Made by a program: the position numbers and the translations under genes
DNA from: a virus
Taxonomy: Duplodnaviria; Heunggongvirae; Uroviricota; Caudoviricetes
Direction: 5' to 3' (one strand)
Virus record (IMG/VR): IMGVR_UViG_648276656_000011
Length of the DNA stretch: 6,695 bases
The notes under the pieces: model-generated
Told to the model about the DNA's origin: nothing
Seen by the model: the letters and a program-made list of their open reading frames with translations, nothing else
Database searches by the model: none
Shown: in pieces, positions 1-6,695 of the stretch
Layout of the letters: every line of letters starts with the position of its first letter
Numbering within the stretch: position 1 is the first letter of the stretch

Positions 1-6
1 ACCCCC

Positions 7-27
7 AAAAAAAAAAAAAAAAAAAAA
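7..27. repeat. A21 homopolymer tract (T21 on minus strand)
   Basis: Direct reading: 21 consecutive A at 7-27, flanked by C5 (2-6) and C5 (28-32). Confidence 0.9.
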
Positions 28-50
28 CCCCCGCGGAGGGGGGGGTTTTT
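28..50. terminator. Probable bidirectional intrinsic terminator
   Basis: CCCCC(28-32)/GGGGG(38-45) stem with loop GCGGA, followed by T5 on the plus strand and preceded by A21 (a T21 tail for a minus-strand transcript such as cspF). Confidence 0.5.
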
Positions 51-335
51 GTGCTTTAGATAGGGTAATAGAGATGTTGAATCTCATTCCGGGATTCATG
101 TTTATTTACTTATTATTTATCGGGTGACTTTGCCTGATGTTTAAAATGTTTTCTTCCAGTACTATGTCCCTAGATACAATGAGTCTGCATATTACATTAT
201 TAGCAGAGCTATTACGGTCAAAGTACAGCATAAGCTTTTAAAGCCAATCAACCAGTCATCAAGACAGACGGGGTTATTCATGAAAACTCTCCATGTTTGA
301 TTCGATGGGGCCTGAAATTAAAGCTTTAATATAGC

Positions 336-548
336 TCATGAAAGGTAAACATTGGCAGCTGAAGGGCCACGCAGACCATTTATCCGGCAAAATTCCACGC
401 GTAATCCGGTGGTAATTTCTTCTGCATCGCGGAGATTGAGCGCTGAAACATGAAGCTGGACATCGATACGACCATCGGATGGGGTGATAAGACCCTTGCC
501 GCTTTTGCCGTCAAAGGTTTTGACAATTCCTGTCATTTTACGGGACAA
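336..548 (-). CDS. cspF: Cold-shock domain protein, CspF/CspH-type (70 aa)
   Basis: Translation [27 protein letters not shown]...[21 protein letters not shown] matches the CspF/CspH subfamily from memory. The first codon is TTG, 4-5 nt after an AAGGAA SD; an in-frame ATG sits four codons in (534-536). Divergent to cspB as in the Qin prophage. Confidence 0.85.
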
Positions 549-640
549 AAAAATTCCTTAATACTGATAACTGGGCGCACTATACACACGTTCCTGAAGA
601 AAGCTATAGTTTTTTGATGGGGTTGAAGATGGCTGGATGT

Positions 641-706
641 CTAAAATAAACATTGCTTCATATGTTCAACTATGCGTTAATGATTGCGTCGGTTTGAAGA
701 ACAGAC
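641..706 (+). promoter_or_regulatory. cspB promoter (UP-like AT tract, -35 TTGCTT, -10 GTTAAT) and cold-box-like 5'UTR start
   Basis: AT-rich 641-653, TTGCTT 654-659, 16-nt spacer, GTTAAT(G) 676-682, then GGTTTGAAGAACAGAC (691-706), which resembles the cspA 5'UTR start and cold box (GGTTTGACGTACAGAC from memory). Implies a ~160-nt 5'UTR typical of cspA-family genes. The same motif set recurs upstream of cspI. Confidence 0.55.
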
Positions 707-848
707 GATATACGAAGTAGTTTACTAAAGCAGTTCTCATTTCAGGTGTTATTCACTTATTCCTTCTTTGAGTCTCTCCAATTAAGTACGAAGTCGTTTC
801 TGTTATACAAGCCATTTATGCCGAAAGGCTCAAGTTAAGGAATGTAGA

Positions 849-1064
849 ATGTCAAATAAAATGACTGGTTTAGTAAAATGGTTTAACGCTGATAAAGGTT
901 TTGGCTTTATTTCTCCTGTTGATGGTAGTAAAGATGTGTTTGTGCATTTTTCTGCGATTCAGAATGATAATTTTCGAACCTTGTTTGAAGGTCAAAAGGT
1001 TACCTTCTCTGTAGAGAGTGGTGCTAAAGGTCCTGCAGCAGCAAATGTCATAATTACTGATTAA
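849..1064 (+). CDS. cspB: Cold-shock protein CspB (71 aa)
   Basis: [38 protein letters not shown]... is a classic CspA-family sequence with the RNP1 motif KGFGFI and RNP2 VFVHF. SD AAGGAA lies 8 nt upstream of the ATG. Confidence 0.9.
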
Positions 1065-1345
1065 AATTCATAGTTTGTCTGTATACGATAACGAAGAAGG
1101 CTGATGCCTGAGTGGAGATACAGACAGAGTGGTGAATATTGGATCTCTTTAATAAATAGTAAGGAGGTCCAATACATGAAACAATGGCCAGCATATTTGG
1201 CAATAACTTAATCAGGAAAAGTATGCTAACCATTGTGGTGAAGTGCAGGTTTGCTGCATGAATAGTTTTACAGCAGAAGCTAACTGCTGGCATAGCAAAA
1301 CAAAGTGCGTAAGTGGATGACTCCCACAAAAAGTACCACAATATT

Positions 1346-1370
1346 AAACCCGCTCAGGCGGGTTTTTTAT
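1346..1370 (+). terminator. Rho-independent terminator (possibly bidirectional)
   Basis: AACCCGC (1347-1353), loop TCAG, GCGGGTT (1358-1364), then T6. It is ~280 nt after the cspB stop and ~60 nt beyond the convergent minus-strand zinc-ribbon ORF. Confidence 0.7.
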
Positions 1371-1427
1371 TATCTGCTTTAAATATGTTATTAAAATATA
1401 AAAAATACTTGTTACGAATAAAATCAA

Positions 1428-1598
1428 TCAAGCTACAGCTTTAAGATTTGTCTGGAATACTTTGTTGCAATGAGGGCAGATCAAAAGGGCACCTTTTTGT
1501 ACTCTTGAAAAACTGTGTTCTGACTCTTGGGTGCAGTTTGGGCAGGAACATTTAACGAGATAATTACGGCGTGATTTTGAGTCTTTACGTTCTGACAT
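1428..1598 (-). CDS. Small zinc-ribbon protein (56 aa, CxCPxC...CPHC), hypothetical
   Basis: The minus-strand ORF track gives 73 aa, but the internal ATG (plus-strand 1596-1598) has SD AGGAAAAG 6 nt upstream, whereas the first Met has none. Translation MSERKDSKSRRNYLVKCSCPNCTQESEHSFSRVQKGALLICPHCNKVFQTNLKAVA carries four Cys in a zinc-ribbon arrangement. Confidence 0.55.
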   Translation of the reverse strand: MSERKDSKSRRNYLVKCSCPNCTQESEHSFSRVQKGALLICPHCNKVFQTNLKAVA

Positions 1599-1607
1599 AG
1601 GCTTTTC

Positions 1608-1629
1608 CTGTATAAATGGCCGTATACAG
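1608..1629. promoter_or_regulatory. Perfect palindrome CTGTATA-N8-TATACAG abutting the RBS of the zinc-ribbon gene
   Basis: Direct reading: ctgtata (1608-1614), aatggccg, tatacag (1623-1629). Either an operator for a dimeric DNA-binding protein or an mRNA hairpin next to the SD. Confidence 0.5.
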
Positions 1630-1816
1630 TACACTAAATATGAAAACATATCTCGTATTATTATTTAATATATGATTTTCTTTTAAAATAATTACCCACA
1701 TTTTTAATGTGTCTGTTTTTTAGCGCCGTTGAGAACAACGTTTGCTATAAAAACTAACCCATAGACTCCGATCTTTTCAAACATATTGCACCATCTGTGT
1801 ACATCGGGGTGAGGAT

Positions 1817-2032
1817 ATGAAATCAATGGATAAGTTAACAACAGGTATCGCCTATGGCACATCGGCTGGTAATGCTGGTTTCTGGGCATTGCAGTTACTC
1901 GATAAAGTAACTCCGTCACAGTGGGCTGCAATCGGTGTGCTGGGTAGTCTGGTTTTTGGCCTGCTGACGTATCTGACAAACCTTTATTTCAAGATTAAAG
2001 AAGACAGGCGTAAGGTTGCGAGAAGAGAGTAA
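1817..2032 (+). CDS. essQ: Class II holin / pinholin, phage-21 S-type, with dual-start motif (71 aa)
   Basis: [71 protein letters not shown] closely resembles the S21 pinholin from memory. The Met1-Lys-Ser-Met4 start fits the antiholin/holin dual-start arrangement. Strong SD GGGGTGAGGA upstream. Positioned as in Qin (cspB - essQ - ydfR - rrrQ). Confidence 0.85.
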
Positions 2033-2036
2033 TCCA

Positions 2037-2588
2037 ATGACACAAGACTATGAACTGGTTGTGAAAGGAGTCCGCAATTTTGAGAATAAAGTGGCGGTAA
2101 CTGTAGCCTTACGGGACAAAAAACGCTTTGACGGTGAAATTTTTGACCTGGACATCTCGCTGGACCGTGTTGAAGGTGCCGCGCTGGAGTTTTATGAGGC
2201 AGCAGCCAGAATGAGAATCAGACAGGTATTCCTGGATGTTGCTGCCGGGTTATGTGTAGGGGATGAGCAGTCGCTGGAAAAGCGCCCCATAATTTTAGAG
2301 GCGCAGAATGTGTGGATAACCTACAAAGGAAAGCTACCGGGAAGAATTACTGGTTCTCTGAAGACGCCACCGACGGCATTGCGGTCAGAAAAAGATGATA
2401 TTGAATCGCCCATTGAAAAACTGGAGGGCAGCGTCGCTGATCTGAATAAAAAATTGTCGGTGCTGATCCCTTCTGAAGATGAAAAAAAACGCCGCGATGA
2501 GCAGTTTGCGGCGTTTTACGATTATTGCATTGAAGTTACTCGCAGGAATTTTGTGAAGATTTTTGAGGAGGGTAAATCTCTTCAGTAA
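2037..2588 (+). CDS. ydfR: YdfR-family lysis-cassette protein with a long C-terminal extension (183 aa from ATG 2037)
   Basis: The tracked ORF starts at TTG 2016 inside the holin gene; the ATG at 2037 lies 4 nt after the holin stop and gives MTQDYELVVKGVRNFENKV..., which I recognise as the N-terminus of Qin YdfR (recalled as DUF1327, ~100 aa in K-12). Here the frame stays open to 183 aa. Its antisense frame is Phe-rich junk, supporting plus-strand coding. Confidence 0.65.
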   Translation: MTQDYELVVKGVRNFENKVAVTVALRDKKRFDGEIFDLDISLDRVEGAALEFYEAAARMRIRQVFLDVAAGLCVGDEQSLEKRPIILEAQNVWITYKGKLPGRITGSLKTPPTALRSEKDDIESPIEKLEGSVADLNKKLSVLIPSEDEKKRRDEQFAAFYDYCIEVTRRNFVKIFEEGKSLQ

Positions 2589-2796
2589 GCTTAATGGCGG
2601 ACGCTGCAATTAATTCAGGAAGGTCCGCAAGGTCATCTGTCAGTGGATATGATGAAAAATCGGCGGCAGTTCTGTTAAGAAGCGCTTTAACTAATTCCTT
2701 TTCCTTCTCCGGCAACAAGTTGATTAGAGCTACGACTGCTTGCCTGAGTGCGATTAAATCAGCAAAAGTTTGTTTTGGTAGATTTGTGTAATCCAT
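2536..2796 (-). CDS. Hypothetical small acidic protein (86 aa), convergent with and overlapping the ydfR-like 3' end
   Basis: ATG at plus-strand 2794-2796 is preceded on the minus strand by AGAGGTGA with a 5-nt spacer. Translation MDYTNLPKQTFADLIALRQAVVALINLLPEKEKELVKALLNRTAADFSSYPLTDDLADLPELIAASAIKLTEEIYPPQKSSQNSCE is helix-like and acidic with no signal peptide. The overlapping plus-frame ORF 2594..2791 looks less protein-like. Confidence 0.5.
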   Translation of the reverse strand: MDYTNLPKQTFADLIALRQAVVALINLLPEKEKELVKALLNRTAADFSSYPLTDDLADLPELIAASAIKLTEEIYPPQKSSQNSCE

Positions 2797-2909
2797 AGTC
2801 ACCTCTGTGTTTATCAGATTGACATCCTCCTCCCGCCAGTGCCCATCACTGGTGAGGTAAGATTTAACATATCCGGGGATTTGAAGCCGATAAATCCTGA
2901 TAAATATCC

Positions 2910-3937
<1,028 letters not shown>

Positions 3938-4094
3938 ATTAATATTAAATCGGATTATTTTTAGCGCTGAATGTGAAATTTAAATAAAAAGGACTCTTCC
4001 ATGAGTCAAAATCCTTGAAATCTTAAGGGTAAGATAAAAGGTCATTAGACAGAATGACACGTTTTATTAATAAATAAAGCTATTGTTTCATTCG

Positions 4095-4170
4095 TGTGTT
4101 TTTCTTTACAAAAGTAATCCTTGCTATGGTTGGTTAATCATGCGTTAATGGTGTTCTGGTTTGTTACAAA
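4095..4170 (+). promoter_or_regulatory. cspI promoter and cold-box-like 5'UTR start
   Basis: AT-rich 4095-4120, TTGCTA 4121-4126, 17-nt spacer, GTTAATG 4144-4150, then CTGGTTTGTTACAAA. Parallels the cspB upstream region (shared ATGCGTTAATG...GGTTTG). Confidence 0.5.
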
Positions 4171-4300
4171 ATTATCTGAAGCAGTCATTGTTATAATTTT
4201 ATTATTTGTACCTCTTGAGATTTCCTTGTTGGTTTTTCTCTCTGATATTTTTTTTCGGACCATTCTGCCCAAGGGCTAACTTCTTCAAAAGGTAATAATG

Positions 4301-4513
4301 ATGTTTAACAAAATGACTGGTTTAGTGAAATGGTTTAACCCTGAAAAAGGTTTTGGTTTCATCACGCCGAAAGATGGTAGCAAAGATGTGTTTGTGCATT
4401 TCTCAGCTATTCAGAGCAACGATTTCAAAACGTTAACTGAGAATCAGGAAGTCGAATTTGGTATTGAGAACGGACCTAAAGGCCCTGCAGCTGTTCATGT
4501 AGTGGCACTTTGA
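4301..4513 (+). CDS. cspI: Cold-shock protein CspI (70 aa from the second ATG)
   Basis: [70 protein letters not shown] matches CspI from memory. Tandem ATGs at 4298 and 4301; AAGG lies 6 or 9 nt upstream. Confidence 0.9.
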
Positions 4514-4717
4514 GGTAGAAAATATTACAAACCATATTCACTTTAGATGCCCGTGTTGCCATGGTTCTCAGTATAGAACATCATCTTTTGATGTTTCTGA
4601 CAGAAATCCTTTCGGGGCAAAATGTATCTTTTGTAAATCAATGATGATTACATTTGATAATATTTCACAATACTTAAATGTTAGCCATCTGTCGTTAGAT
4701 TTAAGAAAGTGAAAATG

Positions 4718-4741
4718 AAGGCTCCTTCGGGAGCTTTTTTG
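4718..4741 (+). terminator. Rho-independent terminator with UUCG tetraloop
   Basis: GCTCC (4721-4725), TTCG, GGAGC (4730-4734), then T6 (4735-4740); ~200 nt downstream of cspI. Confidence 0.8.
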
Positions 4742-4784
4742 CTTAGTGTCTAGTCGATGGATACTCACATATTACGGTAACATT

Positions 4785-5015
4785 ATGAAAAAAATAATAG
4801 TTTTTTTTAACTCTGAACCAGCAATGGTAGTGCCAGTGATGACCGGAGTTAACACCATCATGCGTGAATATCCAAATGGCGAAACAACACACCTCACTGT
4901 AATGGCTGCAGGGTTTCCATCTCTGACCGGAGATCATAAAGTCATTTATGTAGCAGCGGATCGACATGTAACTTCAGAAGAAATTCTGGAAGCAGCAATG
5001 AGACTCTTGAATTGA
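4785..5015 (+). CDS. ynfN: YmcE/YnfN-like small cold-shock-associated protein (76 aa from ATG 4785; start uncertain)
   Basis: Open frame 4746..5015 with several candidate starts: GTG 4746 (89 aa), ATG 4785 (76 aa), ATG 4860 (51 aa). None has a strong SD. The position between cspI and gnsB matches ynfN in Qin, and 76 aa would match the YmcE paralogue length from memory. Confidence 0.5.
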   Translation: MKKIIVFFNSEPAMVVPVMTGVNTIMREYPNGETTHLTVMAAGFPSLTGDHKVIYVAADRHVTSEEILEAAMRLLN

Positions 5016-5144
5016 TTTGATTCTAATGCATTGATAATAAATGATAATCATCTTTATCTGTTTGTGTGAAATTTAGACCGTCGTATGTTGATTATTGCGA
5101 TGTTTCATCTTATCTTTTATACGTTTGCTCCATATAATTGACAC

Positions 5145-5164
5145 TACTGTGTACCAGGACAGTC
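5145..5164. promoter_or_regulatory. SOS-box-like motif TACTGT-N8-ACAGTC between a TATAAT hexamer and the gnsB RBS
   Basis: taCTGTgtaccaggACAGtc fits the CTGT-N8-ACAG core of the E. coli LexA box, though the spacer is GC-richer than consensus. TATAAT at 5133-5138 lies just upstream. Confidence 0.35.
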
Positions 5165-5187
5165 ATAACAGACTAAAAGAGGAAATG

Positions 5188-5361
5188 ATGAACATTGAAG
5201 AGTTAAAAACAAAAACAGAAGCAGATATTTCTGAATATATAACAAAAAAAATCATTGAGCTTAAGAAAAAGACCGGGAAAGAAGTTACCAGTATCCAGTT
5301 TACTGCACGGGAAAAAATGACTGGTCTTGAAAGCTATGATATCAAGATTGATTTAATCTAG
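5188..5361 (+). CDS. gnsB: GnsA/GnsB-family small protein (57 aa)
   Basis: MNIEELKTKTEADISEYITKKIIELKKKTGKEVTSIQFTAREKMTGLESYDIKIDLI resembles GnsA/GnsB from memory (MNIEELKK...FTAREKMTGLESYD). SD AAGAGG lies 5 nt before ATG 5188. The tracked ORF 5095..5361 is a 5' over-extension. Confidence 0.8.
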   Translation: MNIEELKTKTEADISEYITKKIIELKKKTGKEVTSIQFTAREKMTGLESYDIKIDLI

Positions 5362-5425
5362 CATGTTTATAGTATTAGCATCAATTTCTCATCAGATGCT
5401 ATTCAACAATACAAATTACCCATAA

Positions 5426-5449
5426 ACCTCGTTTTTACGGGGTTTTGTT
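5426..5449 (+). terminator. Weak candidate terminator after gnsB
   Basis: CCTCG, loop TTTTTA, CGGGG (one G-U pair), followed by TTTTGTT. Confidence 0.35.
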
Positions 5450-5656
5450 ATATTTAAACATTACCGAATAGATATAAATCTCGATTGTCAATGGTATTGG
5501 TTGTGTGACAATACCTAGTCTTTCCGGTATGCCTGAAGAGAATACAAACGACAGATTATGTAAGGGAAACGCGCTGAAACTTTCACTCTTTCATGCTGAG
5601 TGATTTGACGTTATATTTTTAGCCGCAAGTGAAGAGCAAACGAATGGAGCGACAAA

Positions 5657-5863
5657 ATGCATAAAGATCAATACACTGATGCCCCCTCCCAGGAGCAGGT
5701 TCGTGTAAAAACTATGCTTAATAGCACCATTTCGATGGGTTACCCGGATGTTGTAATTGCATGTATAGAACATCAAGTATCTCTGGAAGCATTCAGGGCA
5801 ATTGAGGCCGCGTTAGTAAAGCACGATAAGAATACGAAGGATTATTCCCTGGTGGTTGACTGA
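5657..5863 (+). CDS. Hypothetical small prophage protein (68 aa)
   Basis: ATG 5657 with GGAG 7 nt upstream. [68 protein letters not shown] has protein-like composition. It sits where ydfO lies in Qin but is much shorter; it may correspond to a YbcW-like 68-aa prophage protein (uncertain recollection). Confidence 0.5.
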
Positions 5864-5898
5864 TCACCATAACTGCTAACCATTCTGACCATTTCACA

Positions 5899-5929
5899 AG
5901 TGACAGAGTCAATATCGTATTCTGTCACT
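5899..5929. repeat. Perfect 9-bp inverted repeat AGTGACAGA-N13-TCTGTCACT
   Basis: Direct reading: agtgacaga (5899-5907) and tctgtcact (5921-5929). No T-tract follows, so it is not a classical intrinsic terminator. Confidence 0.8.
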
Positions 5930-6228
5930 GTAAGGCTAATACAGTACTGCAATTCAACTACAGCAATGCCTCGTATTTAGGTGAATTTACAATATCGTCC
6001 AGTTCGGATGCCGGCTGCATTTCTGAAGATAAGGCATTTCGGTTCGCGTATTTTCCCCTCATGCTCGTCAGTCCTGCGCGTAGTAAGAAACAGGACACTC
6101 ACACTAATTTGTGTGGGCATGCTGTGATGTCCTTCTGAATTATCCCCATGCCATTATGTAACGCTCTGTTTCAGATGCTCGTCACGGTTGTCAGGCTGTC
6201 GGGTCCTCCCAGTGGGGGTCCCTGCCAC

Positions 6229-6246
6229 GGGGCGGGAGCGTCGCGG
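6229..6246. other. cosN-like GC-rich segment (putative cohesive-end site)
   Basis: GGGGCGGGAGCGTCGCGG followed by an AT-rich stretch resembles the lambda cosN neighbourhood (GGGCGGCGACCTCGCGG then tttcgctattt, from memory). It lies ~170 bp upstream of the terminase-small-subunit-like gene, matching the cosN-cosB-Nu1 layout. Confidence 0.4.
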
Positions 6247-6321
6247 AAAAAGGCTAGTTTTTGCATTTTTATCGGCCACCATCATCTTTGCATCTTATTG
6301 ATTATTAATGGTTGTTTGTTT

Positions 6322-6390
6322 TTTGTATGTCGAATTGAGTGTTTTTTGTTCGACATCGAACGCGTTTTCTTAAAGTTGTTCGCACGATGC
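6322..6390. promoter_or_regulatory. Three TTGT(A/T)(T/C)G..CGA repeats; candidate cosB-type small-terminase binding sites
   Basis: ttgtatgtcgaa (6322-6333), ttgttcgacatcgaa (6347-6361, which includes the small palindrome TTCGA-ca-TCGAA), and ttgttcgcacgat (6376-6388), just upstream of the HTH gene at 6416. Confidence 0.35.
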
Positions 6391-6415
6391 ATGTTTAAAG
6401 CTCTCCGGAGGAAAT

Positions 6416-6640
6416 ATGGATCATGAGTTGAAAAACCTGGTGCTGAATATTAATCAACTGGCGGCTTTATCTGGTCTGCACCGCCAGACTGTCGTGGCAA
6501 GACTGAAAAACATTCGTCCCGCTGGTGGACATGACAAACTCAAGCTATACCGGTTGACCGATATTCTGACTGAATTTATGGGGTTACCACCGCCGGTTGC
6601 TGAGGGCGAAATGGATCCACATGAACGCAAAGCCTGGTAA
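6416..6640 (+). CDS. Terminase small subunit-like HTH DNA-packaging protein (NohQ/Nu1 position), 74 aa, possibly truncated
   Basis: SD GGAGGA 4 nt before the ATG. LVLNINQLAALSGLHRQTVVARLKN looks like an N-terminal helix-turn-helix. Location immediately after the cos-like region. A TAA at 6638-6640 is followed by a frame that stays open to the window end. Confidence 0.55.
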   Translation: MDHELKNLVLNINQLAALSGLHRQTVVARLKNIRPAGGHDKLKLYRLTDILTEFMGLPPPVAEGEMDPHERKAW

Positions 6641-6695
6641 CAGCGCACAGGCGGCAGCGTCCTCGCAGACTGCATCGGCAAACTCCGCGACAGCA

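Follow-up and report, generated by a model that had tools for sequence, protein, structure and literature searches.

The window, by which we mean the whole 6,695-nt stretch of caudoviral DNA analyzed here, equals the final 6,695 nt of contig GG771984.1 in assembly GCA_000164255.1, as an exact-protein look-up established. It is 99.9% identical over positions 30–6643 to a Qin-like lambdoid late region found in E. coli strains including FY26, S88, and APEC O1, the genes of which include cspF, cspB, ynfU, the holin gene essQ, the lysozyme gene rrrQ, rzpQ, cspI, ynfN, and gnsB. Toward the right-hand end of the window, a GC-rich segment is followed by an AT-rich tract and by the start of a terminase small subunit (TerS) gene, which breaks off at its junction with a fragment of a side-tail-fibre (stf) gene. 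The genes and their junction are arranged as follows.

6407–6412, plus strand: GGAGGA, the Shine-Dalgarno sequence of TerS′, ahead of the start at 6416.
6416–6640, plus strand: TerS′, a truncated small terminase of 74 amino acids comprising the helix-turn-helix part of DUF1441 and corresponding to residues 1–74 of the 163-aa TerS.
6636–6643, plus strand: the deletion joint GGTA/ACAG, which leads from TerS codon 74 into the tail-fibre gene and makes a TAA stop.
6640–6695, plus strand: an internal stf fragment, out of frame with TerS′ and a 100% match to stf genes.

The first-pass annotation had placed a cos-like site upstream of a small terminase gene; the gene is real, but only a 74-codon stump of it is present. 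The residues of TerS′ are identical to residues 1–74 of the 163-aa TerS in prophage FY26 and in PhiR40_1, and the stump matches both Pfam DUF1441 (E = 5e-15) and PHROG 141, “terminase small subunit” (E = 2.5e-27). Lambda Nu1 (PHROG 57) and the DUF1441 TerS each match the PHROG family of the other over nearly their whole length, with E-values of 5.6e-8 and 8.3e-9, and are thus distant homologues. The hhalign alignment of TerS′ residues 8–62 onto Nu1 residues 1–58 is sensible but statistically weak, with a probability of 6.7%; the AlphaFold model of TerS, built from a 6-sequence alignment, has a mean pLDDT of 56 and is too poor for a test of the winged-helix fold, and a PDB sequence search with TerS returned no significant match. 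A 92-codon open reading frame that spans the cos region (6148–6426) is annotated as hypothetical in PhiR40_1; it was treated as non-coding because the family alignment abounds there in indels whose lengths would break the frame.

In FY26-type strains, the late region continues downstream with the genes for the 163-aa DUF1441 protein, for TerL (the terminase large subunit, 700 aa), for a portal, and for a protease/capsid fusion. In the window, the homology to TerS stops and that to stf begins at the joint, and a deletion has thus taken out TerS codons 75–163 together with TerL, the entire set of head genes, and most tail genes. The stf fragment is a 100% match to genes, one of them in E. coli C, that are annotated as “prophage tail fiber N-terminal domain-containing protein”, and the contig ends 55 nt beyond the TerS′ stop. 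The sequence across the joint is ...GCCTGGTA/ACAGCGC in the window, as compared with GCCTGGTA/TCAG in the intact TerS gene and GCAG(C/G)TA/ACAGCGC in the intact stf gene. A search of 5,426 complete E. coli genomes did not find this TerS′–stf joint, nor did 30-nt and 21-nt probes find it in the GTDB representative genomes, and it is therefore considered rare. Each of its two sides is nevertheless met again in another combination: a DLP12-type prophage joins the Nu1-type nohD to the same stf nucleotide (GAACTGATA/ACAGCGC), and the Logan contig L025, which is 100% identical to the window over 5850–6640, joins the same point of TerS to a tape-measure gene (GCCTGGTA/ACCGTGCC, the intact gene reading GCTGGCTA/ACCGTGCC). 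Successive microhomology deletions could account for both coincidences, the second deletion perhaps being templated by a noh′–stf joint. Quasi-sites of a Pin/Gin-type invertase were also considered as the cause of the recurring joints and set aside, as by eye they are unlike the crossover sites of such invertases.

Upstream of the truncated gene, the segment in which packaged DNA would be terminated and cut comprises the following elements.

6201–6207, plus strand: the cosQ heptamer GGGTCCT, the packaging-termination subsite, the same heptamer as in lambda.
6225–6246: cosN, 22 bp, CCACG/GGGCGGGAGCGT/CGCGG, the top strand with a predicted nick at 6229/6230 and the bottom strand with one at 6241/6242.
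6230–6241, plus strand: the predicted 12-nt 5′ cohesive end GGGCGGGAGCGT, as suggested by homology and by the ends of deposited records.
6242–6268, plus strand: the cosN-to-R3 spacer CGCGGAAAAAGGCTAGTTTTTGCATTT, at the position of I2 in lambda, identical in Tritos and near-identical in cdtI.

A GC-rich, cosN-like segment followed by an AT-rich tract had been noticed at the outset, and the base composition agrees with this description: the GC content is 0.80 over 6200–6239 and goes down to 0.275–0.35 over 6260–6380, the GC-rich block quoted at that time, GGGGCGGGAGCGTCGCGG, being 6229–6246. The composite pattern GGGTCCT-N19-ACGGGGCGG-N6-CGCGG has a single match in the window, at 6201–6246, and none in 200 shuffles. 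When aligned to the joined ends of lambda (NC_001416), which read GGGTCCT-N20-TACG/GGGCGGCGACCT/CGCGG, the window reads GGGTCCT-N19-CACG/GGGCGGGAGCGT/CGCGG, and the cosQ heptamer is situated 29–23 nt before the nick here and 30–24 nt before it in lambda (a gap of 22 versus 23 nt). The 5′ flank of cosN is CCACG in the window and TTACG in lambda, while the nick flanks ACG/ and /CGCGG are common to both. Within the 12-mer, bases 1–6 are equal and bases 7, 8, 9, and 11 are changed, leaving 8 of 12 bp as in lambda; the initial remark that the segment resembles lambda cosN but departs from it at several positions was thus accurate. All relatives from E. coli and Klebsiella keep the heptamer as GGGTCCT, and those from Salmonella and Citrobacter have AGGTACT in its place. 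According to Feiss et al. (2015), the CG dinucleotides at the nicks are conserved and the 7-bp cosQ highly so, whereas differences in bp 7–12 are common among cos sites (N15 at bp 9 and 12, Gifsy-1 at bp 8, 9, and 11), and changes in the right half had no measurable effect on cos cleavage in lambda and N15. The departures of the present 12-mer from that of lambda fit this natural right-half variation exactly, comprising the three Gifsy-1 positions plus bp 7.

The position of the genome end can further be compared with the deposited records of related phages. The Tritos record ends with ...CCCTGCCACG (...CCACG) and starts with GGGCGGGAGCGTCGCGGAAAAAGGCTAGTTTTTGCATTT, which is identical to window positions 6230–6268; the cdtI record begins at GGGCGGGAGCGT, the same 12-mer as that of Tritos, and the record of Hafnia phage yong2 begins at CGCGG, i.e., at +13. 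In the record of LLS, whose TerS is 63% identical to the TerS family of the window, positions 1–12 are annotated as “5' extended single-strand cohesive site GGGCGGCGCGCT”. Tritos is prophage 3 of E. coli LF82 and forms virions and plaques, as described in the LF82 paper, which gives no end mapping for Tritos; the LLS authors, in turn, state “we infer” for their end, on the grounds of the similarity of TerL to that of lambda and of M. Feiss’s analysis of mEp213. The starts of deposited records may follow the analogy with lambda instead of measurement, and a full-text literature search for GGGCGGGAGCGT returned a sole match in an unrelated mammalian paper. Judged from these records, 6229/6230 would correspond to the genome end in the related phages.

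Between cosN and the TerS start, the AT-rich tract contains the candidate elements of a cosB, to which distances from the predicted top-strand nick are added in brackets.

6275–6286, plus strand: candidate R3, GCCACCATCATC (+46 to +57), which corresponds in the alignment to the relatives’ (C)ATCATCATCA block and agrees with the consensus at 7 of 9 positions.
6291–6303, minus strand: I1, a candidate IHF site, AATCAATAAGATG, which agrees with 8 of the 9 specified positions of the consensus WATCAANNNNTTR.
6326–6334, minus strand: candidate R2, inverted, TTCGACATA (+97), which forms an inverted pair with R1 and overlaps the first repeat of the first-pass annotation.
6349–6357, plus strand: candidate R1, TTCGACATC (+120), an exact TTCRHCAYC preceded by the conserved T-rich TGTTTTTTGTTC and located within the second repeat of that annotation.
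6376–6387, plus strand: the third of the repeats reported earlier, TTGTTCGCACGA, which is off the R consensus.

These elements were derived from an alignment, extending from cosQ to the ATG, of 12 members of the TerS family (PhiR40_1, 569R4, phi458, CP-1639, VT1-Sakai, Fels-1, Gifsy-2, Chris1, mEp043, Eeyore, Kp4865-4, and the window), in which the conserved blocks are, from 5′ to 3′, cosQ and cosN, the AAAAAGGCTAGTTTTT spacer, (C)ATCATCATCA, an A/T-rich block containing TTGAT, GATGTCGAA, and TGTTTTTTGTTC(R)(H)CATC. Scanning 14 family members for TTCRHCAYC with at most one mismatch, and counting distances from the nick, places the motif at +43 to +51 in forward orientation, at +95 to +99 inverted, and at +118 to +122 forward again; these distances hold despite differing spacers and a TerS start that shifts by 72 nt, from +130 to +202. 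The TGTTC..CA at R1 is invariant across the alignment, and so is the CA.CA at 6280–6284 within the R3 candidate in the 12 sequences. The latter candidate lies in an ATC-periodic stretch in which several registers are possible, and its distance from the nick agrees with the rule of 47 ± 2 bp given for R3 in the title of Higgins and Becker (1994). Exact copies of TTCGACAT occur only twice in the window, as the inverted pair 6327–6334 and 6349–6356, and the count of R motifs in the window, taken alone, is modestly unusual, with 2 observed versus 0.31 expected (P about 0.04).

A similar conservation of position is displayed by the IHF site. With at most one mismatch allowed, the consensus WATCAANNNNTTR has a single match in the cosB of the window, with one mismatch, and exactly one match in each of 12 relatives and in lambda, always between R3 and R2, four of these matches being exact. 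As a match in a single sequence has a 25% chance of occurring at random, it is the conserved position that argues for the site. Feiss et al. (2015) describe a complex cosB as one with three R sequences, of which R2 is oriented against R3 and R1, an IHF site separating R3 from R2. The R motifs of the window follow the same forward–inverted–forward order, and here too an IHF-consensus site separates R3 from R2; the complex cosB is thus recognized here by its sequence pattern and by the conservation of that pattern, including a candidate R3 that agrees at only 7 of 9 positions. The sequence features themselves, their conservation, and their fixed spacing in the relatives are direct observations, from which TerS binding, IHF binding, the nick positions, and any present-day use would follow by homology, conserved spacing, and the deposited genome ends. 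The cosQ heptamer, R3, and the IHF site had escaped the first reading of this DNA.

What had been reported in this interval were three TTGT(A/T)(T/C)G..CGA repeats, regarded as candidate terminase-binding motifs. Three copies do exist, at 6323–6333, 6346–6359, and 6376–6387, but a two-base gap fits only the third; when written as TTGTWYG-N(1-4)-CGA, the pattern has three matches in the 6.7-kb window, with gaps of 1, 4, and 2, as compared with 0.23 expected, and none of 200 shuffles reaches three. As binding motifs, the repeats are partly on target, since the first overlaps R2 and the second R1, but the first is inverted and the third is off the R consensus. The family-wide pattern of R motifs implies that the first repeat is R2 read on the wrong strand and that the second is R1. 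The third is confined to the window/PhiR40_1 and mEp460 subgroups and is missing where TerS starts at +130 to +160.

An alternative function for the repeats at 6323–6387 would be the control of TerS expression, as a leader or attenuator RNA or as operators, in place of terminase binding. R1 is located inside a small palindrome, GTTCGACATCGAAC, with a terminator-like match at 6347–6362 in a pattern scan, and the third repeat, present in one subgroup only, lies in the 5′ leader near the Shine-Dalgarno sequence. However, the stem has only 6 pairs (3 of them G–C) and the number of terminator-like matches equals the shuffle expectation; most relatives are without the palindrome, yet their R motif keeps its distance from the nick and not from the start codon; no Rfam family is matched; and the forward–inverted–forward R motifs with an IHF site mirror the cosB of lambda. 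A scan of the region for sigma-70-like promoters found none. We consider expression control improbable as the role of these repeats, and regard R3, R2, and R1 as candidate terminase-binding sites in what follows.

The relationship between cosB and its terminase is illustrated by Tritos and cdtI. The sequence upstream of the nick, including cosQ, closely matches between Tritos and the window, and the two are identical from the nick to +39; the first mismatch is at +40 (6269), and beyond it the sequences are unrelated, with cdtI behaving in the same manner apart from a few substitutions. The TerS proteins of Tritos and cdtI are also of the DUF1441 type but are only 42% identical to the window-type TerS, and a repeat search in the cosB of Tritos, carried out as a contrast, gave nothing clear. 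This mosaic boundary coincides with that between cosN and cosB, just before R3, which suggests that cosB is inherited together with its TerS allele; with an unrelated cosB and a TerS of 42% identity, the specificity of initiation presumably differs from that of Tritos and cdtI.

Taken together, window positions 6201–6415 very probably represent a sequence-intact lambda-type cos, composed of cosQ, cosN, and cosB, that belongs to the DUF1441-TerS lambdoid lineage (the group of mEp460, PhiR40_1, mEp213/LLS, Gifsy-2, and Fels-1) and has been orphaned, its mechanism being assigned by homology with lambda. Over 6190–6639, which includes the whole cos, the window is 100% identical to the FY26 prophage, which keeps the full TerS, TerL, portal, and capsid genes. 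In comparison with the plaque-forming phage PhiR40_1, for which E. coli ECOR13 is the recorded host, there are five differences in the cosQ region, at 6199 (upstream of cosQ), 6211, and 6218–6220 (the cosQ–cosN spacer), and two in cosB, of which 6314 lies in a spacer and 6326 forms the outer edge of R2; at 6326 the alleles of the window and of PhiR40_1 are both off the R consensus. The proposal that the packaging site is decayed does not survive this comparison. A relic in which mutations of cosN or cosB have inactivated the site and prevented cleavage is very unlikely: the host prophage is plainly defective, with TerS truncated and TerL and the head genes deleted, and the 12-mer departs from that of lambda at 4 of 12 positions, but these four differences are confined to the tolerant right half, the records of Tritos and cdtI, both virion-forming phages, begin with this very 12-mer, and the identity with FY26 and the near-identity with PhiR40_1, which differs in cosB at 6314 and 6326 only, argue against it. 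What has decayed is the terminase, with TerS cut at codon 74 and TerL gone, and not the cos.

Comparison with the cos of lambda provides a measure of how far this assignment extends. Both sites share the GGGTCCT heptamer at a near-equal distance from the nick, the nick flanks, bases 1–6 of the 12-nt end, the forward–inverted–forward order of R motifs with an IHF site in the R3–R2 interval, an R3 at about 46–50 bp from the nick, and a cos about 175 bp upstream of TerS, which in the window is a distant homologue of Nu1. A location immediately upstream of a Nu1-related TerS and a gpA-type TerL is among the features by which Feiss et al. (2015) recognize a lambda-like cos, and the window retains it, although TerL itself has been deleted. 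The two differ in cohesive-end bases 7, 8, 9, and 11, in the R core, which is CGTTTCC in lambda versus TTCRHCAYC here, in the R2–R1 spacing, which is 41 bp in lambda (cores at +114 and +155) versus 23 bp here, and in the Pfam and PHROG family of TerS. The specificity of cosB would therefore differ from that of lambda, as it is paired with a DUF1441-type TerS and not with Nu1; the suggestion of a variant specificity made in the first-pass annotation is thereby substantiated at the sequence level, and cross-packaging with lambda is not expected at initiation, by analogy with the precedent of lambda and 21.

Further relatives are found in the mEp213/LLS group (mEp043, LLS, Eeyore, and Kp4865-4), which has the same TerS family, layout, and R positions, the TerL of LLS grouping with that of lambda according to the LLS paper. 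This group differs from the window in its 12-mer, annotated as GGGCGGCGCGCT in LLS, and in a shorter cosB, with R1 running into the TerS start codon (+130); in the window, R1 is followed by a 57-nt leader that includes the third repeat. The cos of Gifsy-1, by its published description, differs from that of lambda at bp 8, 9, and 11, and the window at those positions and at bp 7.

The orphan cos sites of DLP12 and Qin, associated with nohD and nohA, resemble the present one in their setting, namely a lambdoid late region with cold-shock genes, holin, lysozyme, and Rz, followed by a cos, a TerS remnant, and an stf fusion, which in the DLP12-type joint involves the identical stf nucleotide. They carry Nu1-type noh genes and a cos of lambda specificity, however, and the window carries a DUF1441 stub that is cut at codon 74, as compared with about 169. 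The lambda hybrids lambda qsr′ and lambda qin arose by the rescue of cos regions of the DLP12/Qin kind. The cos of PICIs (EcCICFT073 and relatives, with Rpp) likewise resides on a carrier that does not package itself and depends on a helper terminase, and has a lambda-like cosQ and cosN; it is, however, without R repeats and lies beside rpp, whereas in the window R repeats are present, the neighbour is a TerS remnant within a prophage late operon, and no PICI hallmark genes are in view. Nor is this a self-sufficient packaging module with full TerS and TerL in cis, as TerS ends at codon 74 of 163 and is followed by the stf fragment. The site is to be placed with what is already known, as the lambda-like cos of a well-populated E. 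coli prophage lineage, and the current picture of lambda-like packaging is unchanged.

By homology with lambda, TerS dimers would bind the forward R3, the inverted R2, and the forward R1, and IHF would bend the DNA at I1, bringing R3 and R2 together. A gpA-like TerL placed in this manner would nick the top strand at 6229/6230 and the bottom strand at 6241/6242, leaving the 12-nt 5′ end GGGCGGGAGCGT, with packaging proceeding rightwards, while cosQ and cosN would end a packaging run coming from the left. Since the terminase has been lost in cis, the orphan cos could act only in trans. Such use would need a terminase of matching cosB specificity, for instance that of a PhiR40_1-type phage, and the cos could also be acquired by a phage via recombination. 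In lambda, 21, and N15, termination needs cosQ and cosN only, whichever cosB is present, and specificity for cosB enters at initiation (Feiss et al. 2015); by analogy, any lambda-like terminase might terminate at this site and only a matching one could initiate. A lambda-type run initiated here would need a second cos downstream; none is known, as the contig ends 55 nt after the TerS′ stop.

A further possibility is that the orphan cos and the 74-residue stub have been retained by selection as a helper-activated module, either a decoy or a packaging handle. If so, the Q protein of a related phage would switch on the late operon, and the stub, the cos, or both would compete for the incoming terminase and its cosB; alternatively, the helper terminase would cut the chromosome at the orphan cos and package the neighbouring DNA. 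The same 74-aa product is encountered with two joints, TerS′–stf here and TerS′–tape-measure in L025, the stub keeps the helix-turn-helix region and is situated in a late operon that the Q of a related phage might switch on, and the redirection of a helper terminase to a foreign cos has a precedent in PICIs. On the other hand, L025 equals the window over 5850–6640, and the two joints may have arisen one after the other by deletion within a single lineage; a packaging run of the lambda type is completed only at a second cos, and the window shows none; and the joint is rare, with no occurrence in a complete E. coli genome or a GTDB representative. A homologue search with the 74-aa stub found, for the most part, fragments of E. 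coli TerS that are incomplete or frameshifted, with cuts at 60, 81, and about 97 residues, and the occurrence of E. coli TerS remnants cut at so many points argues against selection for a 74-residue product. Retention by selection therefore seems highly doubtful, and an intact cos left behind by the deletion, which is itself directly observed, is the preferred reading.

The analysis accordingly yields a map of cosB for the DUF1441-type TerS, with TTCRHCAYC at about +47, about +97 (inverted), and about +120 and an IHF site separating the first copy from the second, which could help annotators to place genome ends in the many lambdoid phages and prophages that have such a TerS. With regard to the element itself, the window represents a defective prophage without the ability to package itself, whose use by a helper is possible only with a related phage; as its packaging signal is intact, the late region would be a ready substrate for a matching helper, be it in cutting, in the termination of a packaging run, or in rescue by recombination.

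The interval between the ybcW-like ORF and cosQ (window 5864-6200) comprises about 340 nt without an annotated gene, a stretch also kept in Tritos, mEp460_ev081, and HannyBb; its ORFs are short and confined to the minus strand, and a search of Rfam returned no match for it. The sequence from just upstream of cosQ to the end of the small terminase stub, TerS', carries the following features:

6148-6426, plus strand: 92-codon ORF crossing cosQ, cosN, and cosB, annotated in PhiR40_1 as a hypothetical protein
6370-6387 and 6395-6412: TTAAAG repeat flanking TTGTTCGCACGA, TerS leader
6376-6387: TTGTTCGCACGA, within the TerS leader
6636-6643: joint between TerS' and the side-tail-fibre gene stf

The ORF spanning cos is probably not a gene, because the family alignment contains indels across it that are not multiples of three. 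Only two subgroups, mEp460 and window/PhiR40_1, conserve TTGTTCGCACGA and its TTAAAG repeat. The terminator scan flagged a small palindrome at window 6347-6362, GTTCGACATCGAAC, that encloses the R1 candidate; Gifsy-2 has a similar one, whereas most relatives lack any.

Several sequences bear irregularities of their own. At the left end of the window (1-45), homopolymer-rich ACCCCCAAAAAAAAAAAAAAAAAAAAACCCCCGCGGAGGGGGGGG occurs where the closest relatives have hairpin-like GAAAACCCGCTGATGAGCGGGTTTTTG; it is found in the deposited contig as well, and looks like a cluster of sequencing or assembly errors of a draft assembly, not like a biological feature. The record of mEp460_4F5 (LR595868.1; positions 1-30) starts 5 nt upstream of the predicted nick and, compared with all close relatives, is short of the dinucleotide TC where cosN ends on the right; both features probably arose through misassembly at the cohesive ends. 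The reference prophage of E. coli FY26 (record 858000-875500) has full TerS, TerL, and head genes, yet it is cut in minor tail gene L. Directly next to it lies the Q antiterminator gene of another prophage, which is HK97-like and has a P27-family TerS and an HNH endonuclease, so the FY26 prophage, too, is probably incomplete as a phage.

The endpoints of the deletions recur. The TerS'-stf joint of the window and the joint of Nu1-type nohD to stf in DLP12-like prophages fall at the same stf nucleotide. In a second contig, Logan ERR4014584_349 (L025), the tape-measure gene is fused at the same TerS point as in the window. The matching regions in the comparison sequences are:

L005, about 3995-4010: joint region
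L025, 775-800: joint region

TA|AC is read at all three joints (TerS'-stf, nohD-stf, and TerS'-tape-measure), with a microhomology of 4-6 nt. Furthermore, two independent metagenome/Logan contigs (L026 and L027) both end in ...GCCTGGT, the TerS position of the deletion joint, and these breaks suggest that alternative continuations at this point coexist in their source samples.
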